NCBI GenBank assembly: GCA_963783675.1
Contig: CAWAOU010000018.1
Location: forward strand, 114,627 to 178,626
DNA: 64,000 bases
Source: an uncultured Gammaproteobacteria bacterium
GTDB lineage: Bacteria > Pseudomonadota > Gammaproteobacteria > Competibacterales > JAHEDQ01
Direction: 5' to 3'
The position numbers were made by a program, and so were the translations under genes. Below are positions 19,599 through 60,961 of the stretch, one piece after another. Below the pieces are notes generated by a model. It was not told the DNA's origin and ran no database searches. It saw nothing but the letters and a program-made list of their open reading frames with translations. The first letter of the stretch is position 1. The number at the start of each line of letters is the position of its first letter.

Positions 19599-20120
19599 GT
19601 GGCCAAGGCATGGCAAAAACTCGACCTTGAAGGCGGTGGCCTGCAGACCGTCAACCTGCATCTGCGTCGAACCCTGCGAAAACGCGGCATCGCCTATGCA
19701 CTGTGGCCGTTTTTTGCCCTGGGCGCCCACCGGTTTTACCTCAGAGAAACCCGGGGCGCTCTCGTCTACATGGGCCTGAGTAGCGCGGTAATCTTCACTG
19801 CCTGGCAGTTCGGCCAACCTTACTTCTGGATCGCACTCGCACCCCTGCTGATCTTTGCTTTGTTCGATCTCTGGTGGATCGATGGGGCAGTCACCCGTAC
19901 CAACAAAGCCCTGCGTATGGCCACACTGCTGCGCACCGATGCCAAACCGCCCACGGGGTACACCGGTCGCTTCAGCGACCCACCGGACACCTTGAACGAC
20001 TACGTTAAGCTCAAGGAGCGGGAACGGGCAGGCCACCCATCCCGCGAGAGCCCGCCGGCCGCCAACGATGCCGACGCCGCGCCCGGGTCCCCTCTTTCGC
20101 CGAACAAGAGGCATTGCTGA
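19599..20120 (+). CDS. TM2 domain-containing membrane protein
   Basis: IAYALWPFFALGAHRFYLRETRGALVYMGL matches the TM2 signature (GaHrFYlG). The track ORF starts at TTG 19539 inside the inverted repeat. GTG 19599 with AGGAAG 8 nt upstream is the more plausible start. Confidence 0.6.
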   Translation: MAKAWQKLDLEGGGLQTVNLHLRRTLRKRGIAYALWPFFALGAHRFYLRETRGALVYMGLSSAVIFTAWQFGQPYFWIALAPLLIFALFDLWWIDGAVTRTNKALRMATLLRTDAKPPTGYTGRFSDPPDTLNDYVKLKERERAGHPSRESPPAANDADAAPGSPLSPNKRHC

Positions 20121-20160
20121 AGGAACTGGCCCGACACCGAGGCAAGTCTCGGGACTGAGC

Positions 20161-21151
20161 TCAAACCACGAGTGGCGGTTCGTCCATGGCGGCCATCTGC
20201 TCCCGCAGTGCCAGGATCTGCTCTTCCCAGTAACGGGCCGAATCAAACCAGGGAAATGCACGGGGGAACGCCGGGTCTTCCCAACGCCGAGCCAGCCAGG
20301 CCGAATAGTTGAGCATGCGCAGACTGCGCAAGGCCTCGGTCAGATTCAGTTCCCGTCGATCAAACTCGCGAAACTGCTCATAGCCATCGATCAGCGTACC
20401 CAGTTGCCGGGTCTGATTACCCCGGTCCCCGGCCAACAGCATCCAGAGATCCTGCACCGCTGGACCGTTAAAGCTGTCGTCCAGATCGACAAAATGCGGG
20501 CCGGACTCAGTCCAGAGAATATTCCCGGGATGGCAGTCACCGTGAGTTCGCAGCGAGTGTAGTCGACCGGCTGCATCGAAGCGCGCCTGAACCCGGAGCA
20601 TGACATCCCGGGCGACACCTTCGTACACCGGGCCCAGTTCGGGCGGCATCCGGTCCAGCGACAAGAGATGTGAAATGGCGTCTTCTCCCAGCGCAATCGG
20701 ATCAAAGCTCGGTCGGTGCTGGTAGCGGCTCAAGGCGCCGATGTTGTGGATACGGGCCAGCAGGCGGCCCATGGTCTCAAGCGTGTCATCCAGATCAAGT
20801 TCGGGTGCCCGCCCCCCACCCGTGGATAGATGGCGAATCGAAATCCCTGATGACTGCCGAAGGGTATTTCCACGCTCATCGGGTAGTGGCGGCCACCACG
20901 GGGATTTCCTCCCCGGCCAGCTCCGTGCTGAAGGCATGTTCCTCCGAAATAGCCGCGTCGGACCAACGCTCCGGCCGGTAGAATTTCGCAACCACCGGTG
21001 TCTGATCCTCTACGCCAACCTGGTAAACCCGATTTTCGTAACTGTTTAAGGCCAGTAGCCGTCCGTCACAAGGCAATCCGCTGGCCTCAACGGCATCCAG
21101 GACTGTCTCCGGCCCCAGCGCATAGAAATCTCCGGTATCGCCTGTTTTCAC
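20161..21151 (-). pseudogene. srkA: Stress-response Ser/Thr kinase SrkA (YihE/RdoA) interrupted by two frameshifts
   Basis: Homology runs through three frames. Frame 1 is 21151-20876 (FYRPERWS...EEIPVVAATTR*). Frame 2 is about 20885-20815 (HQGFRFAIYPRVGG). Frame 3 is 20815-20161 (RAPELDLDD...HGDCHPGNILW...FVDLDD...PAVQDLWML). All align collinearly with E. coli YihE. Confidence 0.8.
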
Positions 21152-22003: not shown

Positions 22004-23064
22004 GAGGTTCTGGGAAATGAGCAGGTTCTGGGATTCGACTATCGGACAAACGCGACCCAGTGGCCCACAGTGAGAGAGGCCATCGAGAAAGAGCAGACGC
22101 AGGCGGCTGGACCGGTTGACCTGGTTCAGGGTGGGGTGGGCGTAATCACCCGGACACCGATCTACATACCAGACCCCAAACGACCCGGGGAGCGGCTCTA
22201 CTGGGGCTTGTCCAGTGTCGTGATCGACTTCAACACCATCCTTGACGAGGCGGGTCTGCCGGACGCGGAGTCGAACTACCGCATTGCCATTCGGGGCAGA
22301 GATGGCCTGGGGGCCGAGGGCGGAGTGCGCTGGGGCGACCCGGAGTTGTTTCAGGCAAAGCCCGTGACCATGTCCGTAAGTTTTCCCAACGGCAGCTGGC
22401 AACTGGCGGCCGCCCCGAAAGGAAGGCTTTATCAACACAACGACGCGAAGTGAATCGCACCGGCGCGACCCCCATCGCCCTGTCGCTGAGCGCGCTTACT
22501 CTGGTCATGATCCGGGACAGTCGCAGGCTTCGCCACATGGCACTGCATGACCCGCTAACCGGGCTTCCAAACCGGCTCTTCCTGGAGCGTCAACTGACTC
22601 ACACCATTGCCCATGCGCGGCGTCATCAACGTCTGTTCGCGCTGGCCGTTCTGGACCTGAACGGTTTCAAACCGGTGAACGATACCTACGGCCATCTGGC
22701 GGGCGACTCCGTGCTGATCGAAACCGCCAGAAGGATCCAGAAACGAATTCGTCAGGAAGATACCCTGGCGCGCACCGGGGGCGATGAATTCACCCTGTTG
22801 TTGACCGAAATCAACGAACCGACGGATGCGGTCAGCGTCGCCAAGACGCTGGCCTCAGCCATCCGCCAGCCATTTGATTGGGACGGAGCCCAGATCACCC
22901 TGGCGGTGAGCGTCGGCATCGCCATCTATCCGAATCACGGGGATGACCTGAACGGACTGTTCCAACACGCCGACCTGGCCATGTATCAGGCAAAAGACAC
23001 CGCCAACAGCGATTGGACCATCGCCGAGCCCGATCCCGGCAGGATGGATGCCCGACCCCAGTAA
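21939..23064 (+). pseudogene. CHASE-domain diguanylate cyclase (GGDEF), 5'-truncated and frame-disrupted
   Basis: CHASE sequence IRNVALAEGYVITRVYPKEGNE lies in frame 0. It continues as NEQVLGFDYRTN...PVDLVQGGVGVITRTPIYI...FPNGSWQLAAAP in ORF 22070..22453. The TM helix plus GGDEF domain (ORF 22450..23064: DPLTGLPNR...GGDEFTLLL) follows in a third frame. Confidence 0.7.
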
Positions 23065-31973: not shown

Positions 31974-32363
31974 TCATCCGCCCCAGGCATACTGCTCGAA
32001 GAACATCGGTAACACCCGGCCGACTTCGTTCTTGGCGAAGAATCGATCGGCCCGGGCCAGACGCATCTCGTCCCGGATGTCATCATCACCGCCAAAGCAG
32101 AATACGGCCAGGTTGATCTGGTGCTGGTTTCTGATTTCGCGAATCACGTCCATGGGATCAAAGACATCGCATTCGTCGAGATCCAGAACCAGGAAACGAA
32201 ACAACAACAGTTCATGCCATTCGCCGGCCTGGTCCAGATCATCCACCTTAACCTGATCCCAACCCGGAGGCGTAAGGCTCTGACAGTCCGCCACAAAGCC
32301 ACCGTCGGTGCTGAGCAGCAGATAGCGTCGCCTTAAGCGCTGCTCGATGGTCGGTTCACTCAT
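31974..32363 (-). CDS. Degenerate CheY-like receiver domain protein
   Basis: 129 aa. Receiver-like spacing (RYLLLSTDGG; FLVLDLDECDVFDPMDVIREIR; LAVFCFGGDDD; FFAKNE) with incomplete acidic-pocket conservation. 4-nt overlap with the upstream LplA-like gene. Confidence 0.45.
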   Translation of the reverse strand: MSEPTIEQRLRRRYLLLSTDGGFVADCQSLTPPGWDQVKVDDLDQAGEWHELLLFRFLVLDLDECDVFDPMDVIREIRNQHQINLAVFCFGGDDDIRDEMRLARADRFFAKNEVGRVLPMFFEQYAWGG

Positions 32364-33352
32364 GGGATTCCCCGTACGATTTCCCGCGCCTCGTCTACCA
32401 GCGGTATCGCGCCTGTCGGCCCAAGACAGCGGCGTGCCGCCCGCTCGAACGCCTTGGATGAGGGCGCCAGGCCCTTTAGCTCGTCCAACGCCCGATCCCG
32501 ATGCCGAATACGCATTATTCTGCCTTGTTTCAGGATCAGCCGGGTTGACTCGAGTTCAAGCAGAAAGGTCCCGTGGTTCACCTTGATGCCATGACGAACC
32601 TGGCGGCGGCCATCGGGGTATGCACTCTGTTCCAGTTCTGCCCTGACCTCGGGCAGTTCGTCCCGTTCAGCCGCGGTCAGTTCGGATCCGGCGAAACGCA
32701 GACCCAGGTTATCGCCCAAAGCGGTGCGGAATCGTTGGGCAAGCTCAGACCGTTTCGGGGGAATGCCCTCAGTCATCCAGTCGGTCATCCCGTCACGCAG
32801 GGCCCGAGCCAGCCAGTTACGGTACCCAGACGTGGGTGCCGAGACCAGACCGGCGAAGGTTTCGGCATCGAACCGATGCATAAAACTTGAGCCAATCAAA
32901 TGCGCCTCTCCCACGCTTGCGGCGCCGCTGCCCAGGATCTTGCGTTCAACACACCAAAGATCGCCGATCCCGACGGTTCGCAGGTTCAGCCCAAAAGCAC
33001 GGTAGGTGCTGCGGGCTGCCGCGAGCACCATGGAAAACAAGGTCACCCTCGCCGCCTTGATCAGATCGCGGTGCACGATCAGATAGAAACTGTCCTGCCC
33101 ATCGTCCACCAGTACGGTGCCCCCACCCAGGCAGCGGCGGGTTGTCACGACCCCCCGTGACTGGCAGGCACCCAGATCCAGTTCCGCGCCCGGATCCTGA
33201 CTCGCACCGACGCACATCTGGGTTTGGGCAGAGCGCATCCACACCAAGACCGACGAGTCACCGACCCGCATGCATTCGGCGATGGCCATGGGAACCGCAT
33301 GCATTTCCCGAGGATCGGTGGCGCCGAGTTCGATCCAGCGACCCACTGTCAT
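32360..33352 (-). CDS. Lipoate-protein ligase A-like protein (second, divergent LplA paralog)
   Basis: 330 aa, collinear with E. coli LplA. Motifs: TTRRCLGGGTVLVDDGQDSFY (RRxxGGGxV motif) and the catalytic-lysine block VERKILGSGAAS. Confidence 0.7.
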   Translation of the reverse strand: MTVGRWIELGATDPREMHAVPMAIAECMRVGDSSVLVWMRSAQTQMCVGASQDPGAELDLGACQSRGVVTTRRCLGGGTVLVDDGQDSFYLIVHRDLIKAARVTLFSMVLAAARSTYRAFGLNLRTVGIGDLWCVERKILGSGAASVGEAHLIGSSFMHRFDAETFAGLVSAPTSGYRNWLARALRDGMTDWMTEGIPPKRSELAQRFRTALGDNLGLRFAGSELTAAERDELPEVRAELEQSAYPDGRRQVRHGIKVNHGTFLLELESTRLILKQGRIMRIRHRDRALDELKGLAPSSKAFERAARRCLGPTGAIPLVDEAREIVRGIP

Positions 33353-33963: not shown

Positions 33964-35310
33964 TCAGAATCGCTTGGAGTAATTGAGGGACAGTTCGTAC
34001 TGCTTCATCTCGAGCTCAACATTCTGCGACGGATCAAAGGCGTTGGGGCCCTTGACCGACTCGGACGGCGCATACATAAAAGAAAAATCGATGCCGCTGT
34101 CGTCGCTGAGCGTCCGGGTGAAGCCAAAAGTGAAGTGCTGCTTGACCACCCCTGGGGCCAGAATATTGAACAGCACCTGGCTCTTCGGGATGGGTTGATC
34201 GTTGTATGAGTATCCCGCGCGCCAGGTCCATGCGGGGCTGGATTGCCATTGAAAACCCAGTTTATAGACATTTATGTTCTGCCAGCCGAAGCCGGGACCC
34301 TTGTTGCCGCCCAGCAGAAGATCGTTGTTTCCGGTCATCGCCCCCTGCATCAGGGAACTGGTATTCAGCTTATTGTGTATGGAATCCTCGTCGCTGTACC
34401 AGATGCGCTGCCAATCGAAAAACAGGGTCTTGGAGTCATCCACGTCCCAGGCCAGCCCCAGGCTTAAGGTGGATGGGATGTCGAAACTGCCTTGATTTGC
34501 GAACAGGCCCTTGTAGTCATCGAACTTGGTCATCCAGATTTTGCTCTGGTAGGCCAGCCCCAGATGCAAGCCGTCAACCACCTCGCCCTGGAGACCCAGG
34601 CGCACGCCCATGCCATAGGAAAAATCATGACCATTGTTGGTCAGTTTGTCCGGGTTGCTGGAGAACCCGAACTGACCGAAACGTCCCAACCCTTTTGCCT
34701 CAAACCATTGCATCGCCACAATGGGCGTCACCCCCCAGGAAAACTTCTCATTGATACGGCGCGAATACGTCGGGGAAATAAACAGCTGCATGAGATCAAC
34801 GCCGGTCTCGCCATCGCAGAAGGTGCCGCCCTGCCCCGGCGGAATACCGGTGCCCGGCGCCCCGGCCAACGCGCACGATGCATTGGAACTGTAGTCAGTG
34901 TTCATACCGCCGTTGCCGTATACCGCCACACCCCAGGAGGATTCTTCGTCAATCTCGCTGGCATAGCCGAAACTCGGCAGCAGGAAGTAGTTGGAGTCAC
35001 TGTCTTCCTTACCCTGTCCCAGGGGGAACGTGCCGGGCTGAAACGAGGGGTTGCCGCTGACGGTATACTTGCGGCGCGGGCTGAACAGGGCCGCCCCCAG
35101 ATCCCACTGATTGCCGATGTTGACCAGCCCGGCCGGGTTCATGGCCTGGGCCAGTGAGTCCTGAGGCTTGGCCACCCCGGCCCCGGCCAACCCTTTATGG
35201 ATGGTGCTGTAACCATTGGCGAAGTACCCGGTGGTGGCCTGGGCACCCGTCCCAGCCAGCAGGGCGAGACTCGCCGCACCCGCTGCAAGTAGGTGTGATA
35301 ACTTCCTCAC
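33964..35310 (-). CDS. FadL/TodX-family outer membrane transporter for hydrophobic compounds
   Basis: 448 aa. Signal peptide ending AQA. N-terminal hatch motif TTGYFANGYSTIHKGLAGAGVA. Beta-barrel with a C-terminal aromatic residue (YSKRF). Confidence 0.85.
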   Translation of the reverse strand: MRKLSHLLAAGAASLALLAGTGAQATTGYFANGYSTIHKGLAGAGVAKPQDSLAQAMNPAGLVNIGNQWDLGAALFSPRRKYTVSGNPSFQPGTFPLGQGKEDSDSNYFLLPSFGYASEIDEESSWGVAVYGNGGMNTDYSSNASCALAGAPGTGIPPGQGGTFCDGETGVDLMQLFISPTYSRRINEKFSWGVTPIVAMQWFEAKGLGRFGQFGFSSNPDKLTNNGHDFSYGMGVRLGLQGEVVDGLHLGLAYQSKIWMTKFDDYKGLFANQGSFDIPSTLSLGLAWDVDDSKTLFFDWQRIWYSDEDSIHNKLNTSSLMQGAMTGNNDLLLGGNKGPGFGWQNINVYKLGFQWQSSPAWTWRAGYSYNDQPIPKSQVLFNILAPGVVKQHFTFGFTRTLSDDSGIDFSFMYAPSESVKGPNAFDPSQNVELEMKQYELSLNYSKRF

Positions 35311-35489: not shown

Positions 35490-36644
35490 TCAATCCAGGT
35501 CTTCGTGATCCAGCGTGCCCACGTTCTCACCGGCCATCTGTCGACGGACGAACCCCACGTCGGAGGCGTTTAGCACAAACGGAAAGGACAGAATGTCCGC
35601 CGGGCTGGAATCCCCATAGGGTCGATTACAGGCCGACACTTCCTCATCGGATTTGCCTGGGCATCCGGAGGTTTGAAACGGTTTGCCGGATGCAATCAGC
35701 GATTCGAGTTCATTGCGATCAAGCCCAAAATCCACCACCCGACCTGCGTCGTCAAAGCGCATGTCATCTATCCGGCCGCCGGCATAATCGATGATGAATC
35801 GGGCGAGCTGCACGCGACGCCACTGATCCCGGGATACCGGATTCCAGTCTTCCATCATCGAGCCCTGCTCGGGGAAGAACGCGAACATGTGGTTGTGCCC
35901 ACCCAGGTCCCGTATGCGTTGGGCGATGTCGAGCATCTCCCGCTCGGTCTCACCCATGCCGCAGATCAGGTGAGCACCGAACTTCTCCGGGCCAAAGATC
36001 TCCGCCGCCCACTCGATGGCCTGCCAATACTTGCGCCAGGTGTGGGGGCTGTCCACGGTCTTGCCCCGGGTACGCTCGAAGATCTCCGGTGTGACCGCAT
36101 CCACCGCAACGGTGAAAATGTCCGCACCTTCGTCCCGCAGCCGCAGGATGTCGTCGCGATTCAGCGTGGTCGGATTGGACAGAATGGAAACCGGTATATG
36201 CGCGACCTGATCCACCCACTTACGCAGCAGCACAAAGGTGTCATGGTCCGAGTTGGGATGGGTGATCATGGAGATGCACATGCGCTCGAACTGACCCCGG
36301 TCATCCCCGCTTCGGACCCTCGCGATGACGTCGTCGTAGTGAACGGTGGGCCAATCCACGCGAATGAAATTACGGTCCGCATAGTCGCGTGATTCTTCAC
36401 GATGACGCGCCAGACCGCAGTAGCTGCAGTTGGCCCGGCAACCCTCCGGGTACGTCACCAGAAGGTTCAGACAATGGGTGCAGGCGGTGCGGTGCATGGT
36501 CCCCGGCACCAAGCCCAGGGTGATGGCGGCCGCAGTGGACAGCTGCACGTACTCCGGTGACCGCATATCCGGTGTCTGGATGTGATAGTCAGGCCGGTAG
36601 AAGGTTACCGGCGCTTCAGTTACCGAATCAGCCCTGACACTCAT
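35490..36644 (-). CDS. Radical SAM protein, LipS-type lipoyl synthase subunit (distal copy; LipS2 by position only)
   Basis: 384 aa. Radical SAM cluster motif CRANCSYCGL (CxxxCxxC). Located after the lipT-like gene, as in sHdr-associated lipoate assembly clusters. Confidence 0.75.
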   Translation of the reverse strand: MSVRADSVTEAPVTFYRPDYHIQTPDMRSPEYVQLSTAAAITLGLVPGTMHRTACTHCLNLLVTYPEGCRANCSYCGLARHREESRDYADRNFIRVDWPTVHYDDVIARVRSGDDRGQFERMCISMITHPNSDHDTFVLLRKWVDQVAHIPVSILSNPTTLNRDDILRLRDEGADIFTVAVDAVTPEIFERTRGKTVDSPHTWRKYWQAIEWAAEIFGPEKFGAHLICGMGETEREMLDIAQRIRDLGGHNHMFAFFPEQGSMMEDWNPVSRDQWRRVQLARFIIDYAGGRIDDMRFDDAGRVVDFGLDRNELESLIASGKPFQTSGCPGKSDEEVSACNRPYGDSSPADILSFPFVLNASDVGFVRRQMAGENVGTLDHEDLD

Positions 36645-36694: not shown

Positions 36695-37774
36695 TCAGGC
36701 AAAGTACTCGTCGAATGCGATCCAGCCCCGCCGCATTGCTGCGTCAGAACCGGCCATCGATGTCCGCCACACGGCGGCCAACTCAAGGCGCCGCGCCACC
36801 GCGCGATCCAGCGCAACCTGAAACTGGTCACGCATGTCTTCTTCGTAATCATCCAGGGCCGCATGGTCACCGCCCAACCAGGCCCGCGCCGCCGCACCGG
36901 CAGCCTCACCGGACACCACGGCAGCGTGGATTCCCGCGCCCGTAATGGGATGGGTCAGGCCGGCCGCGTCCCCCACAAACACCGCCGCGCCCCAATGGAG
37001 TTGCGAACGCAAACCGCCCACGGGAATCAATCCACCGGTGCGACCCAGAATGCGTCGGCCGACAATGCCGCGCTCCACCATGCTGGCGTGCAGTCGATCC
37101 AGGGGGCCTTTCAGATCACGGTCGTAGCGGCGATCAGCGCCCAGTCCGAGATTGGCGACCTCTCCCTTGGGAAACAGCCAGCCATAGCCGCCGGGGTAGT
37201 CATCGGACAGGAATACATCGGTGTCGCCGTAGGGCAACCGCAACGGTACCGTATATTGCCGGGTGTTGACCGTCTCCAGGGGTGTCAAACCAAGTTTCTC
37301 CGCAACCGATGAACCGGGTCCGTCGGCAGCGATCAACAGCCGATAGGCAATGCTTTCCAGGGCGCCGTTCTGGCGCCTTATCTGGGCCTGATTGCGCGCC
37401 GGGTCCAGATTCACCAGGCCGGCGCCGCTCCACAGCTCGGCGCCGGCCTGCCGGGCTCGAGCCGCGATGGCCTGATCAAAGCGGGCCCGGTCTATCATCA
37501 GACCGGGAAACTCGGTGGCTACGCGCGCATGGGAGGGCAACTCGGTTTGCATACCGTTGATCCGCTGAACCAGGACCCCGTCCTCACGGGCATATCCCCC
37601 CATGGGGTTGGGAATGAACTCCGCGCACTGAACCGGGCTGCCCAACTGCTGCTTGCGATCGATCCCAACAACGCTCAGGCCGGCCGCTGCCGCACTGGCG
37701 GCCGCACTGCCGCCACCGGGTCCCAGGCCGACGATCAGCAGGTCCACCTCACGGCGGCGCTGTGCTTCAGCCAT
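36695..37774 (-). CDS. Geranylgeranyl-reductase-like FAD-dependent oxidoreductase (LipT-type)
   Basis: FAD fingerprint DLLIVGLGPGGGSAAASAAAAG. Start is trimmed to the ATG at 37774, which overlaps the upstream stop in ATGGCTGA (8-nt overlap). Confidence 0.8.
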   Translation of the reverse strand: MAEAQRRREVDLLIVGLGPGGGSAAASAAAAGLSVVGIDRKQQLGSPVQCAEFIPNPMGGYAREDGVLVQRINGMQTELPSHARVATEFPGLMIDRARFDQAIAARARQAGAELWSGAGLVNLDPARNQAQIRRQNGALESIAYRLLIAADGPGSSVAEKLGLTPLETVNTRQYTVPLRLPYGDTDVFLSDDYPGGYGWLFPKGEVANLGLGADRRYDRDLKGPLDRLHASMVERGIVGRRILGRTGGLIPVGGLRSQLHWGAAVFVGDAAGLTHPITGAGIHAAVVSGEAAGAAARAWLGGDHAALDDYEEDMRDQFQVALDRAVARRLELAAVWRTSMAGSDAAMRRGWIAFDEYFA

Positions 37775-38273
37775 GGACCTGCTCCGGTGCCGAGGCAACC
37801 GCCGACCGGATCGCGGCAACCAGGTCAGCAGGCTCAAGCATCAACATCTGCACCGGGTACTGATCGAAAAAGCGACTGACATTGCGCTCCAACTCGGCCA
37901 GCGCCGTGTTTCGCAATGCGCTTTCCAGATCCACCACCACACGTCTGGGTGCGGCGAAAAAATCCCCGGTGATCCACACCTGGTTCAACCGTTGCCGAGG
38001 CTGGTCAAGCACCACCCCACAGCGCAGGGTGCCACCGCTGCACCGGTGGATCGCTTCACGCATCGGCGCCTCGGTGACCGGTCGATCGCGTTGATAGACC
38101 CAGTCGTCGCAGTCGATTTCTGCCAGCGCCTCGACATACAGGGCTTGTTCCGCCGAATTGAGTTCCGATGCAACTTCATACCGAGCGCCGAAAGCCTCGC
38201 CAAAGGCGTTCGCAAGTGCCTGTCTGACGGTATCCAGCGGTGGCGGAGATCCGAGCAGATCCTGCAGACTCAC
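37767..38273 (-). CDS. Lipoate-protein ligase sLpl(AB), C-terminal (LplB-like) domain portion
   Basis: 168 aa ORF aligning with the LplA C-terminal domain. Its reading frame stays open upstream and reads PAEKLSDKAIASARERV, continuing the homology of the preceding ORF. Confidence 0.75.
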   Translation of the reverse strand: MSLQDLLGSPPPLDTVRQALANAFGEAFGARYEVASELNSAEQALYVEALAEIDCDDWVYQRDRPVTEAPMREAIHRCSGGTLRCGVVLDQPRQRLNQVWITGDFFAAPRRVVVDLESALRNTALAELERNVSRFFDQYPVQMLMLEPADLVAAIRSAVASAPEQVHG

Positions 38274-38301
38274 GACCCGCTCGCGGGCGGAGGCGATGGC
38301 C

Positions 38302-38865
38302 TTATCCGACAGCTTCTCCGCCGGGAATCCTCAGCACGCGCAGCATCCGCTCAACGTCGAACGCCACCAGCACGGTACCCTGATAAAGTATGGAATCGCC
38401 GTCGAACGCGCCACCGGTGCCCGATATCTTCCGTCCTTCCACCTCGATGTCGTTACGCGGTCGAAAGCGGGCATCGACCCCCAGGCTGCTCAAACCAGCG
38501 GCAGCGGCCTCACAGATGCGTCGGGCGATGGTGGTCATGTCGGCGGTACCCAGCACCGCTTTGTCCAGAAACAGTTCCCAACCCAGATGCTCAGGCGCGA
38601 AGTAAATGGCGCCGCCCCCGGTCAGTCGCCGTTGGATCTCGATATCGTGGGCTCGGATGTAGTCGAGATTGAGCTCCTGCTCAACGTTCTGATGAAACCC
38701 CAGAAGCGCCGAAGCTTGGAAACGCAGGAAGCGCAGCGTATGCGGTGAAGTGCCGGCCTGATGGGACTCGAGCAACGCCCGGTCGATGGCGAAATTCTCC
38801 GCCGCCCGTCTCAAGCCGGTATCCAGCACTCGCCATTGAACCGGGTCTCGTGCCTTCACGGGCAA
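38302..38865 (-). CDS. Lipoate-protein ligase sLpl(AB), N-terminal catalytic domain portion
   Basis: 187 aa. Motifs: IQRRLTGGGAIYFAPEHLGWE and the catalytic-lysine block EGRKISGTGGAF. It ends ...RVLRIPGGEAVG*, exactly where a 1-nt shift would join it to the next ORF. Confidence 0.8.
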   Translation of the reverse strand: MPVKARDPVQWRVLDTGLRRAAENFAIDRALLESHQAGTSPHTLRFLRFQASALLGFHQNVEQELNLDYIRAHDIEIQRRLTGGGAIYFAPEHLGWELFLDKAVLGTADMTTIARRICEAAAAGLSSLGVDARFRPRNDIEVEGRKISGTGGAFDGDSILYQGTVLVAFDVERMLRVLRIPGGEAVG

Positions 38866-40040
38866 AAGGCGCCTTTGGAAGGGCTGGACAGCGGATCGTT
38901 GACGGCGGCAACCACCGGAATGCCACCCAGGCTTTTGGTCGGAACACGGCCACCTTGCCGGCGCTCGTGCTCCAGAACACGTTCAAGATCCACCAGCACC
39001 CCCCCATCATCCTCCAGCGCCATGACCTCCTCTCCCACCGCAATGGAGCAGCAGGCCGGCGTGACCTTGACCTGCCGGTCCAAGCGGGCCGCCAGTTCAA
39101 CCACCCCGTCGGACGGGTGGGCGATACCGTTCAAGCCCGCCAACACGGCATAGGCGTCGATTTGCATCTTGCTGATGCCCGGCGGCCTGGCACAGCCCAA
39201 CAGCAGAGGGGTGTCCGGCAAAGCCTCCCGCGCATCCATAAAAAAGCCGCCGACCGCATCGGAGTCAGGCGTGACAAACGGACGGTTTTCGGGCGCATAG
39301 AATGGCATCACTACCACCAGTACCACCGCATCGGGCAGGTGACGGCCAAGCATGCTGAGGGCATTCCACTCGCCCAGAAGCTGTCCATAGTGCAGGCCGA
39401 TGACGATATGGGGCACGACCTTCATGCTGGTTTTGACCAGGGATTCCAGGGTCGCCTCAAAATCGTCCACCGATCGCCGCAGATGATAGACCTGGGTAAT
39501 GGTGTCCTGGGCCCCGATCACGTCCATCATGGCTGCATCGACACCGGACTGTTCCATGCTGCGGGCCATGTCATCGGTCACCAGGGCGGTGTGCATGGCG
39601 ATGCGAAAATCGGGGTGGTCATCCTTCACCCGGCGGATGACCGGGTAGTACGCGTCGTACTCCACTTCGTTGCGGTGATTGGAACCGCCGGTGATCAGCA
39701 TCCCCTGCCCTCCCTGCTCAATCACCTCGTTGACCACCCGCCAGAGCGCCTCCGGTGTCCGCGCCGGCAGCATCGGCTCAAGTATTTTCGCCTTGCAGTG
39801 ATCACACTGCAGTTTGCAATCACTCCCGGTGATGGACACCGCCGGCCAGGCGCTTTTACCGCAGTCACGCAGTTCCGAACTCTGGAAGCTCTTGAAGGTG
39901 GGCGTGTAGAAGTGGATTCTGGTCGAAGCGTCCGCCCCCGATCGGCTCCAGCGCGTCTCCATTTGGCCCACCAGATCCCGATCAAAACTGACGTCTTCCA
40001 AGGCCTCTACCCGTCCCAGCGTATCAATCCACTGCCGCAT
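38856..40040 (-). CDS. Radical SAM protein, LipS-type lipoyl synthase subunit (proximal copy; LipS1 by position only)
   Basis: Radical SAM motif CKLQCDHC (CxxxCxxC). Start is trimmed to the ATG at 40040 (MRQWIDTLG...). 10-nt overlap with the ligase gene. Confidence 0.75.
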   Translation of the reverse strand: MRQWIDTLGRVEALEDVSFDRDLVGQMETRWSRSGADASTRIHFYTPTFKSFQSSELRDCGKSAWPAVSITGSDCKLQCDHCKAKILEPMLPARTPEALWRVVNEVIEQGGQGMLITGGSNHRNEVEYDAYYPVIRRVKDDHPDFRIAMHTALVTDDMARSMEQSGVDAAMMDVIGAQDTITQVYHLRRSVDDFEATLESLVKTSMKVVPHIVIGLHYGQLLGEWNALSMLGRHLPDAVVLVVVMPFYAPENRPFVTPDSDAVGGFFMDAREALPDTPLLLGCARPPGISKMQIDAYAVLAGLNGIAHPSDGVVELAARLDRQVKVTPACCSIAVGEEVMALEDDGGVLVDLERVLEHERRQGGRVPTKSLGGIPVVAAVNDPLSSPSKGAFCP

Positions 40041-40211: not shown

Positions 40212-40649
40212 TCAACAGCCTTCGAAACCCTCGGCGTCCATTTTCGCCTCGAACGCAGCCAGGGCGTCGGCTCCGGTCTTGAGCGCCCCCGACTCGCCAT
40301 CCCAATCCGAGGGCTGCAGCTTCACCAACCAACCCTCGCCATAGGGGTCCTCGTTGATCAAACCGGGATTGCCGGAGACCGCCTCATTGACTGCGGTCAC
40401 TTCACCGGCAACCGGCACCTTGGCCGGACCAACCCATTTGCCCGACTCGACGGTGGCGCAGGATTTATCCTGCTTGACCGACTTGCCGACTTTTTTCGGT
40501 GTGTAGGACACGATCTGCCCCGCCAACGAACAGGCGTATGAGGTCAGACCCACGGTCACGGCACCGTCATCCTCCCTCCGCGCCCACACATTGTTTTCCA
40601 CGTTGTAGATCAGGTCTTCAGGTACGTCGCAACCCCGTACGTCAGCCAT
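40212..40649 (-). CDS. lbpA: Lipoate-binding protein LbpA (GcvH-like), copy 2
   Basis: 145 aa from the ATG at 40649 (GGAGGA 8 nt upstream). GcvH fold with lipoyl-lysine motif TVESGKWVGPA. N-terminus MADVRGCDVPEDLIYNVENNVW. Confidence 0.85.
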   Translation of the reverse strand: MADVRGCDVPEDLIYNVENNVWARREDDGAVTVGLTSYACSLAGQIVSYTPKKVGKSVKQDKSCATVESGKWVGPAKVPVAGEVTAVNEAVSGNPGLINEDPYGEGWLVKLQPSDWDGESGALKTGADALAAFEAKMDAEGFEGC

Positions 40650-52865: not shown

Positions 52866-54747
52866 TTGCGCATCAGCTGCGCGGCGCCTCGATCGAGTCA
52901 GGCGGGTTCGGGTCTTTTCGTGAACACATCTGTCGAGCAGAGATTCACCAATCTCCTGCGGGAACTGGAAACCCTCGTCGGCCAGGAACTCGCCGACCTG
53001 GCTCTGCAAGCCCTTGACGCTGCGGATGCACCCGCCACACAACACGCACCGGTCTTTGAGCTGGGATCGACGGGGCTGCCAGGGTGGCGAATCGCACGCG
53101 CCGTCGAGGAACTCGATACGCTTGCGACAAACCTGCACGCTGCCGCGGACGCACGGGATCGGGGCGCATGGTTGAAATACCACGGCCTGCCAAACCCGAC
53201 CCGACCCGATCCGCTGCTCGCATGGCTTGCAATGATTCCCAGCCTGACATCTGCCTCGCCCAAACTGATCCTGGCGGACGCGACGGATGCATTGAGTGGC
53301 ATGCTGAGCAACAGCAGCCCGGATAAGGCGTCCGAATGGGCGCCCTTCTCCAATGCGACGATCCACAGGACTGCTCGTTACCTGCGTATCCGTCAGGCGC
53401 AAAGAGTCTGGCAGCAGAGCACTTTGGTGACCGCACAAGGGCTGTTTGCCGACGCGCTGAATCGGATGGATGATCCACGCCGCAGTCGATCTGACGATCT
53501 TTGTTCGCTGTTCCCGATTTGGTCACGCTGCCAAGCCCTCGCCGTACAGACAACGGCGGTGCCAAACGTAGACGATATTGAATCAGACACGGCCCAGACA
53601 GCACATAACAGTGTCCAAGCGCGATCGGATCTGTGCCCGGGGCCCCGTCGAACCGTTTCGCGCAGGGCACGGATCCCAAACCCGCTTCCTGGCGGACGGT
53701 CCACTCTTCCCACGCGGTTTCATGACGGCTTGGCCGCGCTGTTAAACGCCATGGCGGCGACTCCAGCGCTTACGCCCATCACGACCCCGCGCCGAGCGCA
53801 TTGGGCGCAACATGGCGCGACACTGTACCGCTATGAAGCCCTGGCAGGGGCCAACGCGGCGCCGGCCCTACTTCTCGTCAGTGGTTGGCGACATCGCAGC
53901 GCGGTGTTGGATCTCGAACCAGACCTGTCGCTGGTAAACGCGCTACGGGGGCATCATATCGATGTGTGGGGACTGGAGTGGGCTGATCCCGAGTTGTCAT
54001 TACGACCGCGCACTATTGAACACTGTCTGCGTGACGTTCTGTCGCCTGCCATCGAATGCATGGCGCAACTCACAGGCTCGCCATGTGCGCTATTGGGCGT
54101 CGGCGAGACCGGCGTTCTTGGCCTCTGCCAGGCGGCACTGCAATCCAAGGCCCTGTCGGGTGTCATTGTAGAGGGTGGCGGCCTAGGGCTCGACCCGACC
54201 TGGCCAGCCCTCGTCCGATGGCTTCCCCTGGATAACTGGCCCACGCAGGTTCTCGTATATTCCGAGCACGGTTCTGGGTGCACTGGAGCACAGTCTGTTG
54301 GGTTGTGGAGAAGATCTGAGCGCGGTGATGGTAAAACTCATGGCGTCCGAGCGGCCTGACTCAGCTCAGTCGTTTGCACGCATGGTGTACTGGACGCTGG
54401 ATCGATTAAGCCTGGACCCGCAGCTGCTGTTGGAGTACCGGGACGCATTTATGCCAGCACCTGAGGTCCCGCGCAAGCCGGTGATGGTGGCTGGCACTTC
54501 AATCGATCCCTCCGCCTTGCGAACGCCGATTCTCAACCTCATCGGCGCCGGCCCAGCGCACGAGCCTCGGGAACCGCCAGGCTGGAATTTTGAAAGTGAA
54601 CGATTTACCTATCGTGAGCTGTCAACGCCTGATGGGGGGCTGGAAGCGATCGCCATGTCCACAGCCTCCGTGCGCAGCCAGTTTGCCCGCGACATTGCTG
54701 AGTGGCTTTGGGCTCTGGAGTGCCACACCACGGTCACCCGCCCTTAG
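52866..54747 (+). pseudogene. PHA synthase (class III PhaC)-like alpha/beta hydrolase with long N-terminal extension, altered catalytic box and a frameshift
   Basis: Residues from about 53850 align with class III PhaC (PALLLVSGWRHRSAVLDLEPDLSLV...DVWGLEW). The lipase box reads GVGETG instead of G-x-C-x-G-G. Homology switches from ORF 52866..54359 to ORF 54298..54747 near 54245-54258 (FARMVYWTLD...PILNLIGA...). Confidence 0.55.
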
Positions 54748-54756
54748 GGGCCATGC

Positions 54757-57984: not shown

Positions 57985-59003
57985 GGCCTCACCTTTGGGT
58001 CACCCTTTCCGGGCACGGATTTGGGCATTTGGCCCAGACGGCACCGGTGATCAATCAATTGTTCCGGCGCATGCCTGAGTTGCGGGTCACAATCCAAAGC
58101 ACGTTGCCACAACCCAAGCTGAAGGAACGCATCGAAGCGCCGTTTGAGTACATAGATGAGCTGGACGATCTGGGCATGGCGATGGTCGATCCATTCGAAG
58201 TGGATTTGGGTGCAAGCGTCGCCGCCTACACGGTGCAGTTGTCAGAGTGGCCACAACGCCTTGCCAGGCAACGTGCGCTGTTGGCCCGATCCACCCCACA
58301 ACTGTTGCTCTCCAATGTTTCACATCTGGCCATTGCCGCCGCTGCCGCAAACGGCATTTCCACGGTCGCTCTTTGTTCATTGAATTGGGCCGACATTCTG
58401 GAGGGCTGCCTGGCTCACCAGCCTATGCCGGAACTCGTGAAACCTTTACGGGCAGCGTATCGCCAAGCCGAAACCTTCCTGGCACCCACGCCGTGCATGC
58501 CCATGACGGGACTGGACCGGCTCGTTTCCATCGGTCCCATTGCGGCTTTGGGGACAAACCGGCGCCGTGAAATCGTTCATGCCCTGGGGCTGCCGGCGCA
58601 TCAGCGACTGGTCCTGGTCACTCTGGGCGGGATCCATGGCCGGCTACCGATGGAGCGTTGGCCACGGACCCCCGGTATCACTTGGCTGGTGCCCACATCA
58701 TGGCGAACCAATCACCCGGACGCCTTGGCCTGGGAGTCCCTGGGTCTCGGTTTTCTCGATGGGCTGTCCAGCTGCGATGCGCTGCTGACCAAACCCGGGT
58801 ACGGCAGCTTCGTAGAGGCGGCTTGCGCGGGCGTCCCGGTGGCCTATGTCGCGCGCCCTCGTTGGCCTGAGGCACCGGCTCTTGTGCAATGGCTGCAAGC
58901 GGTGGCAGCTGCGCGCGAGGTCCGAGCAGAATTACTGAATTCTGGCAATCTCTTGCCCACTCTGGACATGCTCTGGAGCAGCACCAAACGACCCGCCGGT
59001 TGA
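57981..59003 (+). CDS. Putative GT-B fold glycosyltransferase
   Basis: 340 aa. N-terminal LSGHGFGHLAQT and C-terminal LLTKPGYGSFVEAACAGVP resemble GT1/GT28-type nucleotide-sugar transferases. 4-nt overlap with the upstream gene. Confidence 0.5.
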   Translation: MRPHLWVTLSGHGFGHLAQTAPVINQLFRRMPELRVTIQSTLPQPKLKERIEAPFEYIDELDDLGMAMVDPFEVDLGASVAAYTVQLSEWPQRLARQRALLARSTPQLLLSNVSHLAIAAAAANGISTVALCSLNWADILEGCLAHQPMPELVKPLRAAYRQAETFLAPTPCMPMTGLDRLVSIGPIAALGTNRRREIVHALGLPAHQRLVLVTLGGIHGRLPMERWPRTPGITWLVPTSWRTNHPDALAWESLGLGFLDGLSSCDALLTKPGYGSFVEAACAGVPVAYVARPRWPEAPALVQWLQAVAAAREVRAELLNSGNLLPTLDMLWSSTKRPAG

Positions 59004-59956
59004 TCCTTGCGGCGTGGAGCAGGCGGTCGACCACCTCGCGGCCCGATTGGACTGAGCGGTCACAATCCGCGCCCAGCGTGAGGCGTCGGACCATAGCCGC
59101 CTCTTCTTTGCCACCACAATCCTTTGTATGATGTCGCGGGGAAAGAGAATACTCGACCACGCACATCGCCGAACATGGAATGGCGGTGGCATGGAAAGCA
59201 ACACGACGCCAGACGTTGCGTGGAATCGAGGCTTGGGGAAACTGTGATTGGAAGTCTCGTTCCGGGAGCAGGTCTTGGAAGGATCTGTGCCCTGTCGTGC
59301 GCCTGTCTGCTGTCTAAGCCAGTGGCGCCCTTGGCCGGCATTCGGCGAATCAGCGTCGACAAAGGCGTGGGTTCGTATCGCGCTTTTACCGGCAATCCGG
59401 CAGCCGGAGACCAAAACGGCTTACCCGATGTTTCCGTCCGCAACCACAGTGTTGGGGCGGTACTGACAGCGCATCGCGACCTTCCGGCATGGCGCAGCCG
59501 CCTCTATCAAGTCCAGGATGTGGCCCGGACTCCAAGAGCTGAAACCCCAACCCCACAAACCGCCTGCGACGACTCTACAATCCGGCTACGTTCCAAAATT
59601 GCCCAGCGCGGGCTTGATCGCACGAACCCACTGAACCATCAGAACCTGGGCACGTGTCATCTGTGCTCGTTCGCCAGGTTGAACGATCCCCACACGCCTG
59701 CGTCAATCGACCTATATCCAGGATCTGCCTCTCATTGCGCCCATGGGCCGCACAGCGGATGCGCCGTTCTGCAGGCACAGAAGCGACGCCCGAGGCGTAG
59801 CCATGCATCGTGGGAGAATACGATACGCAGACCGGGAGGGCCCGTGCGCCCGGGACAGTGGGCACACCTTCGATTCGATACTGCTCTGCGAACTTTGGCC
59901 GGTTTGCGCAGGTCTGTCGATACACCACTCGCAGCCTTGTACTGAGGAGCTAGGGC

Positions 59957-60961
59957 ATGAACTTTCGAAGTCTCGGCCAAAGTGGCCTTCGGGTTTCCCC
60001 TCTTTGCCTGGGCACCATGATGTTCGGCGGCCCGACGGATGAGGCCTGTGCCCGCGACATCGTGGCGGCAGCCGCCGCCGCCGGGGTCAATTTTATTGAT
60101 ACTGCTGATGTCTACAATGCGGGCCGTTCCGAACAAATCGTAGGTCGTGCGGTGGCGGGACGTCGGGATCACTGGATACTGGCGACCAAAGTGGCCAACG
60201 CCATGGGGGACGGCCCCCATCAGCGGGGACTCTCGCGCCGCTGGATCATGCAGGCGGTCGAAGACAGCCTTGCCCGGCTTGGAACCGACTACATCGACAT
60301 CTACTACCTGCACAAGGAGGATTACGGCACGCCGCTGGAGGAAACCGTGCGGACCATGGCGGACCTGATACGCCAAGGCAAGATCCGCTATTTCGGCTTG
60401 TCCAACTTTCGTGGATGGCGGGTGGCGGCGGTGTGCGCATTGTGCGATCAGCTCGGTATTGCCCGCCCCGTGGTCAGCCAACCCTATTACAACGCTCTGA
60501 ATCGAATGCCCGAGGTTGAACACCTTCCGGCCTGCCGCCACTTCGGTCTGGGCGTCGTTCCCTACAGTCCGCTTGCCCGCGGCGTGCTTACGGCCAAGTA
60601 CGATGCCGATCGCCCCCCCGCCAAGGAGACCCGGGCAGGGCGGGCCGATCCCCGCATGATGGAAACCGAGTGGCGCCCGGAATCTCTGGCCATAGCTCGA
60701 ACTCTGGCGGCCCATGCCGAGCACAAGGGACACAGCCCGATCGGATTTGCGATCGGCTGGCTACTCTACAACCGGATCGTGACCTCAGTCCTGGCAGGAC
60801 CCAGGACCCTTGCACACTGGGAGGGTTATGTCGCCGCACTGAGCTACCCGTTCGATGCCGATGATGAAACCCTGCTGAATTCCATCGTCCCAGCAGGTCA
60901 TCCTTCCAGCTCTGGCTACAGCGACCCGGCCTATCCCATAGAGGGTCGTGAGGTCGGCTGA
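59957..60961 (+). CDS. Aldo/keto reductase (Tas/YajO-like)
   Basis: MNFRSLGQSGLRVSPLCLGTMMFGG...INFIDTADVYNAGRSE...YYLHKED...RYFGLSNF: canonical AKR. Confidence 0.9.
   Translation: MNFRSLGQSGLRVSPLCLGTMMFGGPTDEACARDIVAAAAAAGVNFIDTADVYNAGRSEQIVGRAVAGRRDHWILATKVANAMGDGPHQRGLSRRWIMQAVEDSLARLGTDYIDIYYLHKEDYGTPLEETVRTMADLIRQGKIRYFGLSNFRGWRVAAVCALCDQLGIARPVVSQPYYNALNRMPEVEHLPACRHFGLGVVPYSPLARGVLTAKYDADRPPAKETRAGRADPRMMETEWRPESLAIARTLAAHAEHKGHSPIGFAIGWLLYNRIVTSVLAGPRTLAHWEGYVAALSYPFDADDETLLNSIVPAGHPSSSGYSDPAYPIEGREVG

Follow-up and report, generated by a model that had tools for sequence, protein, structure and literature searches.

A one-base frame break in the sHdr-associated lipoate:protein ligase gene slpl(AB) is probably a consensus error

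The DNA analyzed here is a stretch of 64,000 nucleotides (nt), hereafter the window, in which the gene slpl(AB) for an sHdr-associated lipoate:protein ligase is broken by one extra C in a CCC run. Based on the comparison of assemblies, we consider it probable (roughly 0.75) that the extra C is an indel error introduced into this one assembly at the consensus or assembly stage. This explanation is best supported because the near-identical assemblies all have CC at the site and because further private 1-nt indels are numerous in the window. The organism would most likely make a normal 363-aa ligase. For annotation, the locus is best treated as an unbroken slpl(AB) gene that probably contains a 1-nt consensus error. 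Read literally, the split would imply that this sulfur oxidizer had lost or reorganized its dedicated ligase for LbpA lipoylation, and the organism could then be scored as sHdr defective or as the carrier of a new bipartite bacterial ligase; the comparison warrants neither.

The original prediction placed an sHdr-associated LplA-type ligase in two ORFs, which was borne out by the Pfam match, the match to protein P0001, and the cluster context described below. It also attributed the break to a 1-base shift in a CCC/GG tract, in agreement with our three-frame translation and the alignment with relatives. A sequencing error, an inactivating mutation, and a natural split into LplA-like and LplB-like polypeptides were named as options without ranking. 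Thus, gene, 1-base shift, and tract were right, and the evidence now ranks the options: error comes first and mutation second, and the split is unsupported.

slpl(AB) is a single-chain ligase gene in a lip cluster

Deletion of one C from the broken gene yields a repaired protein of 363 aa when translated from GTG 38859, which is the start in relatives, or of 365 aa from TTG 38865. The Pfam profile LplA-B_cat (PF21948) matched the repaired protein over profile positions 2-199 of 200 (E = 4.9e-49, 167 bits), and protein P0001 was 99% identical to it (E = 6.8e-234), excluding chance resemblance. The NCBIfam model LplB (NF053749) matched residues 282-354 (E = 2.7e-11, 43.5 bits, which is below the 65-bit cutoff), and the LplB chain of PDB 3r07 (3r07_C) was aligned with residues 278-351 (E = 2.3e-4). 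LplA of T. acidophilum was aligned with residues 22-228. The lysine motif GRKISGTGG of the repaired protein was aligned with EKKIMGAAG of T. acidophilum LplA, and we take the lysine in this aligned motif to be the catalytic residue of LplA. Homologues from Thioalkalivibrio, Ectothiorhodospira, and Acidihalobacter were 58-70% identical to the repaired protein. The 120 best homologues were all single chains of 357-379 aa, and none was split. Judged by these matches, slpl(AB) encodes an ordinary lipoate:protein ligase made as a single polypeptide, a fused chain of the LplA plus LplB type.

The main distinguishing feature of sLpl(AB) is its genomic context, with lipS1-slpl(AB)-lipT-lipS2 located beside lbpA and shdr genes (Tanabe et al. 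2023, PMC10332631). In the window, slpl(AB) is flanked by the following genes:

40212..40649, minus strand: lbpA2, a GcvH-like lipoate-binding protein and presumed substrate of the ligase (Pfam GCV_H, NCBIfam, context)
38856..40040, minus strand: lipS1, a radical-SAM lipoyl synthase subunit (Pfam Radical_SAM; best NCBIfam match LipS1, 194 bits, below the 230-bit cutoff; mapped by tblastn)
36695..37774, minus strand: lipT, a geranylgeranyl-reductase-family FAD oxidoreductase (NCBIfam GG-red-SF, 182 bits, above the 158.8-bit cutoff; role per PMC10332631)
35490..36644, minus strand: lipS2, the second radical-SAM lipoyl synthase subunit (best NCBIfam match LipS2, 198 bits, below the 270-bit cutoff)
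33964..35310, minus strand: lipY-like FadL/TodX outer-membrane transporter (Pfam Toluene_X, E = 2.2e-24)

By gene order and profile matches, this is the canonical cluster lbpA2-lipS1-slpl(AB)-lipT-lipS2-lipY, adjoining sHdr genes. LipY has been described as a putative fatty-acid transporter (PMC10332631). The TGA stop codon of lipS1 and the GTG start codon of slpl(AB) overlap as GTGA, and lipT, at its ATG, shares 8 nt with the 3' end of slpl(AB). The GcvH-like proteins number two, and DsrE and CCG/Fer4 Hdr-like genes are also present. Thioalkalivibrio K90mix has this gene order, lipS1-slpl(AB)-lipT-lipS2-lipY, as well, downstream of shdr genes and two lbpA genes. The closest known system is the sLpl(AB) ligase of Thioalkalivibrio sp. 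K90mix, Thiorhodospira sibirica, and Hyphomicrobium denitrificans (PMC10332631), from which the window as deposited differs by the extra C that interrupts the frame at residue 179, a feature shared by no relative. The predicted function of the lipS1-slpl(AB)-lipT-lipS2 lipoate-assembly cluster is maturation of the LbpA proteins of sHdr sulfur oxidation.

The frame is broken by one C inside the catalytic domain

The deposited sequence around the break contains the following features:

38302..38865, minus strand: N-terminal piece of slpl(AB), 187 aa from TTG 38865 or 185 aa from GTG 38859, the latter identical to protein P0128
37767..38273, minus strand: C-terminal piece of slpl(AB), 168 aa from GTG 38273, identical to protein P0129
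38302..38333, minus strand: the sole interval able to hold the frame change, from the +1-frame TGA to the 0-frame TAA
38323..38325, minus strand: CCC run with one extra base (GGG on the plus strand), within ATTCCCGGCG, as placed by nucleotide alignment with relatives
38274..38321, minus strand: codons for AEKLSDKAIASARERV, residues 180-195 of the repaired protein, contained in neither ORF as deposited (mean conservation 0.91 among 120 homologues vs 0.74 for the whole protein)

The N-terminal ORF ends with ...RVLRIPGGEAVG* at a TAA (38302..38304), and its last six residues, GGEAVG, are out of frame. Three-frame translation showed that the +1 frame, which encodes ...FPAEKLSDKAIASARERVVSLQDLLGS..., begins its open stretch at a TGA (38331..38333). 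Since this TGA and the 0-frame TAA delimit it on both sides, the frame change lies between 38331 and 38302. In a tblastn search, residues 179-363 of the repaired protein were mapped to 38324..37770, showing that homology in the C-terminal frame extends upstream to approximately 38324. Removal of one C (or one G) from ATTCCCGGCGGAG (38316..38328) resulted in a single ORF. When the gene was aligned with four relatives, its only indel was at the CCC run, where ATTCCCGGCG in the window contrasts with ATT-CCGGCG in the relatives.

We considered whether the two ORFs could represent a natural two-polypeptide ligase resembling archaeal LplA plus LplB, in which translation of the second product would begin at GTG 38273. 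Bipartite LplA/LplB ligases are known (PDB 3r07 chains A and C; PMC10332631), and the in-frame GTG is located 29 nt past the stop. The T. acidophilum ligase (PDB 2ars, 3r07) is also encoded by two adjacent ORFs, and its LplA fold and LplB-like region are recognizable in the window protein. However, the archaeal division separates complete domains (262-aa LplA and 91-aa LplB), whereas the unconserved break in the window cuts through the middle of the catalytic domain at residue 179, and the archaeal LplA|LplB boundary would follow only 50-100 residues downstream. The N-terminal piece retains only 158 of the 200 catalytic-profile positions (PF21948, positions 2-158 of 200, E = 1.7e-39), and the C-terminal piece comprises the end of the catalytic domain together with the LplB-like accessory domain. 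The conserved residues 180-195 would be absent from both products. In addition, the 12 nt upstream of GTG 38273 read CGCGAGCGGGTC and contain no AGGAGG-like ribosome-binding site. The split arrangement was found in none of the 120 best homologues and in none of six near-identical contigs; in the 90%-identity protein cluster (see below), it was found on the source contig only. Based on the domain mapping, the loss of 16 conserved residues, and the lack of a split orthologue, the natural split suggested as one option by the original prediction was rejected as highly improbable. A literature search on the LplA adenylate-binding loop, intended to place residue 179 functionally, yielded nothing usable.

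A real CCC could also be compatible with a full-length, active sLpl(AB) if the peptidyl-tRNA(Pro) on the CCC of AUU-CCC-G slipped by +1 onto CCG, perhaps aided by the upstream GAGG. tRNA(Pro) tends to slip at CCC-N, and in prfB a Shine-Dalgarno-like element is located 3 nt before the shift codon. The layout in the window recalls the prfB-type frameshift: a +1 change would be needed, and the motif GAGG-AUU-CCC-G has a Shine-Dalgarno-like GAGG 3 nt upstream of the candidate shift codon; a +1 shift at CCC-G would give the exact ancestral ...RIPAEKL.... The likeness appears superficial, however. The A-site codon is GGC, which is neither a stop codon nor obviously slow, and the shift site is not conserved in any orthologue: every relative is without the extra C and has a continuous ORF that needs no frameshift. 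The GAGG derives from the Leu-Arg codons CTG AGG, which are also present in near-identical intact genes, and the outgroup has TTG CGG and no GAGG. Unprogrammed slippage would yield a trace product only. A programmed frameshift at GAGG-AUU-CCC-G was rejected for lack of conservation, and recoding at this site appears very improbable. If it took place, the site would be a case of recoding that arose newly, is not conserved, and rescues an essential sHdr maturation enzyme.

The break is private to the source assembly

For comparison, six near-identical contigs covering the site were available, which represent independent assemblies from ENA, Logan, JGI, and NCBI. At 99.3-99.8% nucleotide identity to the window, all six read ATTCCGGCG (CC). 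Within the 14.8 kb common to the window and the sequence L006, the extra C was the only indel. The outgroup, a Competibacteraceae metagenome-assembled genome (MAG; L003/L004, 86-89% identity), also has CC, indicating that the CCC of the window is the derived state. A pattern scan allowing CC or CCC retrieved only this 86-89% identical MAG, with CC, from the GTDB representative genomes and one contig, again with CC, from the JGI metagenomes. As the observation that would refute it, the original prediction named reads with one C fewer, restoring a single ORF of roughly 365 aa. By proxy, this is what every near-identical assembly has, making a sequencing error the best supported of the options that it listed.

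Protein clustering gave a consistent picture. The cluster at 90% identity has ten members, of which five are intact 363-aa sequences, including P0122 (on 14 contigs) and P0123 (on 8). Within this cluster, the split pair of 185 aa and 168 aa occurs only on one contig of 567,125 bp (NCBI and ENA), the source of the window. P0124 (168 aa, Logan) was examined as a second case of a split and discarded as a contig-edge artefact, since the 1020-nt contig opens almost directly with its gene (start at nt 10). The intact protein P0126, encoded on a Logan contig, matched the repaired window protein at 362 of 363 residues, and both window-specific residues (RCSGG, APRRVV) were present in it. Among the assemblies and proteins compared, the frame break is private to the source assembly.

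The main competitor of a consensus error is a real CCC, that is, a very recent, strain-private frameshift inactivating slpl(AB), by which dedicated LbpA lipoylation would be lost unless another ligase substitutes. Such an inactivating mutation, the second option of the original prediction, would be private to this one assembly; we regard it as rather unlikely. The extra base is present in the deposited sequence, short runs commonly gain 1 nt by spontaneous mutation, and the 36-42 kb segment contains real, mostly synonymous private SNPs, suggesting a distinct strain. On the other hand, the rest of the shdr-lbpA-lip cluster is without decay, its remaining genes all being unbroken and 99.4-100% identical to those of relatives. 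Intact forms of the ligase were found on more than 20 contigs vs one for the split pair, and one intact form differs from the repaired protein by the single residue mentioned above. Furthermore, a real mutation would require four further freshly broken genes in 64 kb, at a private SNP divergence of approximately 0.16% and under evident purifying selection. If the insertion were nevertheless real, slpl(AB) would be a strain-level pseudogene of modest significance.

A possible substitute for the ligase, already named as such in the original prediction, is encoded 4.4 kb from slpl(AB), which would fit with inactivation:

32360..33352, minus strand: second, distant LplA-like gene, 330 aa, outside the split (PF21948, E = 4.8e-17)

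Its product has an ERKILG motif that aligned with EKKIMG, which is the lysine motif in T. acidophilum LplA. However, it is a distant paralogue, with a PF21948 score of 63 bits vs 167 bits for the repaired sLpl(AB) and no LplB match. The exact protein is listed in 42 collection blocks, and a gene of the outgroup L003 matches it in length, Pfam family, and cluster position. Because this second gene is also present in genomes with intact slpl(AB), it was not acquired to replace a lost slpl(AB).

Private indels are frequent in the window

A consensus error in slpl(AB) would probably be one of several in the window. In the 62.8 kb that could be compared, 13 private 1-nt indels were detected, 10 of them within genes. 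Their rate of approximately one per 5 kb would be in keeping with an assembly from long reads alone or with light polishing. Besides the one in slpl(AB), they are located at the following positions:

15168, 19509, 20081, 20815, 20853, 20893, 53632, 53642, 53652, 54253, 58990, and 59894: the 12 other private indel sites

Five genes are disrupted by private indels, namely those for a TM2 protein, an APH-like kinase, sLpl(AB), a 609-aa protein, and a 357-aa protein, and each of the five is unbroken in all sister contigs. Like slpl(AB), at least four further genes of the window probably need such a 1-nt correction. The sister sequence, approximately 267 kb, contained only two frame-disrupting indels private to one assembly, a count that is not strictly comparable with that of the window, since the sisters are interrelated. 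The private substitutions comprised 50 synonymous and 26 non-synonymous changes, or 32 and 10 when one hypervariable gene was left out. Judged by these counts, the private substitutions on the window lineage look filtered by selection, whereas the private indels do not.

Seven of the private indels were aligned base by base, and six of these are length changes in short runs (GG>G, GG>GGG, TT>T, C5>C4, CCC>CC, and TT>TTT). Length changes of this kind also belong to the natural spectrum of slipped-strand mutation, a point against the error reading. A methylation motif as the cause of the indels was considered but not adopted. Of the 13 private indels, 6 had a CCGG no more than 6 nt away, vs a background of 16% (nominal P = 0.011), which is only suggestive given that the test covered six motifs and that three of the sites lie next to each other. 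The private indels co-cluster with private SNPs at 14-16, 20-22, 36-42, and 52-56 kb. Also counting against an error, this co-clustering could mark truly diverged or recombined segments rather than stretches of low-quality consensus.

Ligase gene and its neighbourhood

The lipoate:protein ligase is encoded in the window by two ORFs in different frames:

38302..38865, minus strand: N-terminal ligase ORF, 187 aa from TTG (185 aa if counted from GTG 38859, the start used by relatives), ending ...RVLRIPGGEAVG*
37767..38273, minus strand: C-terminal ligase ORF, 168 aa, GTG start, +1 frame relative to the N-terminal ORF

In the translation of the window, the +1 frame is open from the TGA at 38331..38333 and reads FPAEKLSDKAIASARERVVSLQ...; since it opens only there, the frame change is confined to 38331-38302. 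Deleting one C or one G of ATTCCCGGCGGAG (38316..38328) restored a single continuous ORF. In Pfam, the N-terminal piece spans positions 2-158 of the 200 in profile PF21948 (LplA-B_cat) and the repaired protein positions 2-199, while the C-terminal ORF alone gave no match. ORFs, frames, and Pfam coverage agree with the original prediction of a 1-nt frameshift in the ligase, which was right in every detail.

The following genes accompany the ligase:

40212..40649, minus strand: lbpA, GcvH-like, neighbour of the ligase
38856..40040, minus strand: LipS1-like radical-SAM gene (top NCBIfam match, LipS1)
36695..37774, minus strand: geranylgeranyl-reductase-family flavoprotein, its ATG overlapping the ligase end by 8 nt
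35490..36644, minus strand: LipS2-like radical-SAM gene (top NCBIfam match, LipS2)
33964..35310, minus strand: FadL/TodX transporter, last in this order

The stop of the LipS1-like gene overlaps the ligase start as GTGA. Further upstream are DsrE, a second lbpA, and CCG/Fer4 Hdr-like genes. The names LipS1 and LipS2 rest on best hit and context because both scores (194 and 198 bits) are below the NCBI cutoffs (230 and 270 bits, respectively). The arrangement is the lipS1-slpl(AB)-lipT-lipS2-lipY order described for Thioalkalivibrio sp. K90mix, a pathway in which LbpA is octanoylated or lipoylated for sulfur oxidation by the sHdr system (PMC10332631). Judged from sequence, the broken gene is the canonical slpl(AB).

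Comparison with relatives

Searching for homologues of the repaired protein yielded 2659 matches at E <= 1e-20, and every one of the best 120 was a single chain of 357-379 aa. The top match, P0001 (363 aa), was 99% identical. When the ligase gene was aligned with four contigs encoding P0001 or the ligase protein P0002, a single indel was found: the window reads ATTCCCGGCG, the others ATT-CCGGCG. At the nucleotide level, 1086 of 1093 alignment columns were identical between the window and the sister contigs L001 and L002. Pattern scans accepting CC or CCC were run on GTDB representative genomes and JGI metagenomes. The sole GTDB match, a Competibacteraceae MAG (86-89% identical), has CC, as does the one JGI contig, which is 99.74% identical over 14.8 kb and differs from the window across that length by no other indel.

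Further near-identical contigs were fetched via neighbouring genes, so that the site was covered by L001, L002, L006, L007, L008, and L009, drawn from ENA, Logan, JGI, and NCBI assemblies. Comparison with orthologues, proposed as a check alongside the original prediction, showed CC and an unbroken, called 363-aa gene in all six. The 90%-identity protein cluster (n = 10 members) holds five intact 363-aa sequences, two of which occur on 14 and 8 contigs, and a partial sequence of 353 aa. The split pair of the window, P0128 (185 aa) and P0129 (168 aa), occurs on one contig only, which measures 567,125 bp, is in NCBI and ENA, and is evidently where the window comes from. Another 168-aa entry was rejected as a second split, being a contig-edge artefact: the contig is 1020 nt long and the gene begins at its nt 10. 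The intact cluster protein P0126 equals the repaired protein at 362 of 363 positions and has both residues marking the window allele (RCSGG, APRRVV). Given the CC of the relatives, the cluster, and P0126, the extra C is derived, private to one assembly, and missing even from the closest haplotype.

If tRNA(Pro) slipped by +1 at AUU-CCC-G, moving from CCC to CCG, translation would yield precisely the ancestral protein. With a Shine-Dalgarno-like GAGG three bases upstream of CCC (window 38323..38333), GAGG-AUU-CCC-G bears a superficial resemblance to the +1 frameshift site of prfB. However, the site is unconserved (the outgroup reads TTG CGG ATT CCG), the following codon GGC is unremarkable, and GAGG belongs to the Leu-Arg codons CTG AGG shared by intact near-identical genes. 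Such recoding is extremely improbable.

Position of the break within the protein

The original prediction had also offered a natural division into two polypeptides. Thermoplasma-type bipartite ligases divide between LplA and LplB: T. acidophilum LplA (PDB 2ars, 262 aa) aligned to residues 22-228 of the repaired protein and LplB (3r07 chain C, 91 aa) to residues 278-351, placing the boundary between about residues 230 and 278. The NCBIfam LplB profile matched residues 282-354. In contrast, the window break, at residue 179, cuts the catalytic domain. In the downstream frame, translation could first start at GTG 38273, which leaves residues 180-195 (AEKLSDKAIASARERV) out of both polypeptides. This segment, whose aligned counterpart in the archaeal enzyme is PDEKFRDKIAKSTRERV, has a mean conservation of 0.91, against 0.74 for the whole protein (120 homologues). 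No orthologue split at residue 179 was found among the best 120 of the 2659 homologues or in the near-identical contigs. On these alignments we reject the view that the gene pair would be a natural bipartite ligase.

Private indels across the window

Of the 64 kb, 62.8 kb could be compared with near-identical contigs. Counting as private what differs from all covering contigs, which are related to one another, we found 102 private substitutions in the window, together with 13 private 1-nt indels (15168, 19509, 20081, 20815, 20853, 20893, 38323, 53632, 53642, 53652, 54253, 58990, and 59894). Ten of the indels lie within genes and five genes are disrupted, all intact in every sister contig. Besides the ligase, these are:

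About 20081: TM2-domain protein, split by GG>G; 186 aa in sister contigs
20815, 20853, 20893: APH-like kinase, 329 aa; three 1-nt indels within 80 nt, net shift +1
52920..54749: 609-aa protein; frameshift at about 54253, window ORF stopping after 497 aa
57981..59056: domain-less protein, 357 aa in sister contigs; private G insertion at 58990

The TM2-domain and kinase genes are adjacent (window 19599..21151) and broken in the window only; the kinase gene also has eight private SNPs. The 609-aa protein, hypervariable and without Pfam domains, is encoded just downstream of soxYZA. It shows ~95% amino-acid identity to sister contigs, where flanking genes are 100% identical, and its gene carries 34 of the 76 tallied private coding SNPs and three 1-nt deletions within 20 nt (net -3) in addition to the frameshift. 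The insertion at 58990 alters the C-terminus of the 357-aa protein; a look-up for the exact 340-aa window product returned no record.

Private coding substitutions were 50 synonymous versus 26 non-synonymous (32 versus 10 without the hypervariable gene), a signature of real variation under purifying selection. In the same lineage, substitutions thus look selected, whereas coding 1-nt indels fall as if selection were blind. Six of the seven private indels aligned base by base are short-run length changes, and selected substitutions with unfiltered run-length indels are the pattern that indel-type consensus errors produce. Five newly arisen pseudogenes at a divergence of about 0.16% are hard to reconcile with it. 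Frame-disrupting indels private to one assembly were detected only twice in the ~267 kb of sister sequence: a 1-nt indel in lipY/FadL of L008 (GCA_942492415.1; equivalent to window 34149), with GGGG against GGGGG and 425 aa called instead of 448 aa, and a 7-nt deletion (22403..22409) in L007.

The split is thus probably a consensus or assembly error (probability roughly 0.75): one extra C, most probably an assembly artefact and at most a strain-private pseudogene. That the extra C is a real private mutation seems unlikely, although private indels and private SNPs cluster together, possibly marking diverged segments, and slipped-strand mutation shares its spectrum with consensus indel errors. 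Of the 13 private indels, 6 (38323 among them) have a CCGG no more than 6 nt away, compared with a background of 16% (nominal P = 0.011, with six motifs tested and three sites adjacent), which may hint at motif-associated consensus errors.

As L008 lipY illustrates, single-assembly frameshifts in this population are not confined to the window's assembly. The L007 deletion shifts the junction of CHASE-domain and GGDEF-domain ORFs, two overlapping called genes in sister contigs (window 22353..23064); the pair may be a sensor diguanylate cyclase, frameshifted or variable population-wide. In a ~900-nt stretch (window 59056..59957), none of the sister contigs has a called gene, yet the window holds a 273-aa ORF there (59124..59945) with the private TT>TTT insertion at 59894.

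Second LplA-like gene

32360..33352, minus strand: second LplA-like gene, 330 aa, a distant paralogue (63 bits on PF21948)

The NCBIfam LplB profile did not match this protein. In alignment with T. acidophilum LplA, its ERKILG falls on the lysine motif EKKIMG. Because intact slpl(AB) accompanies the gene in all relatives, its presence is not evidence of compensation. The 330-aa protein, listed in 42 blocks of the sequence collection, may represent a further transferase of lipoate or octanoate, tied to the sHdr/LbpA system. Its gene overlaps that of a 129-aa protein without known domains (window 31974..33352), and the same layout of the pair is found in the Competibacteraceae MAG.
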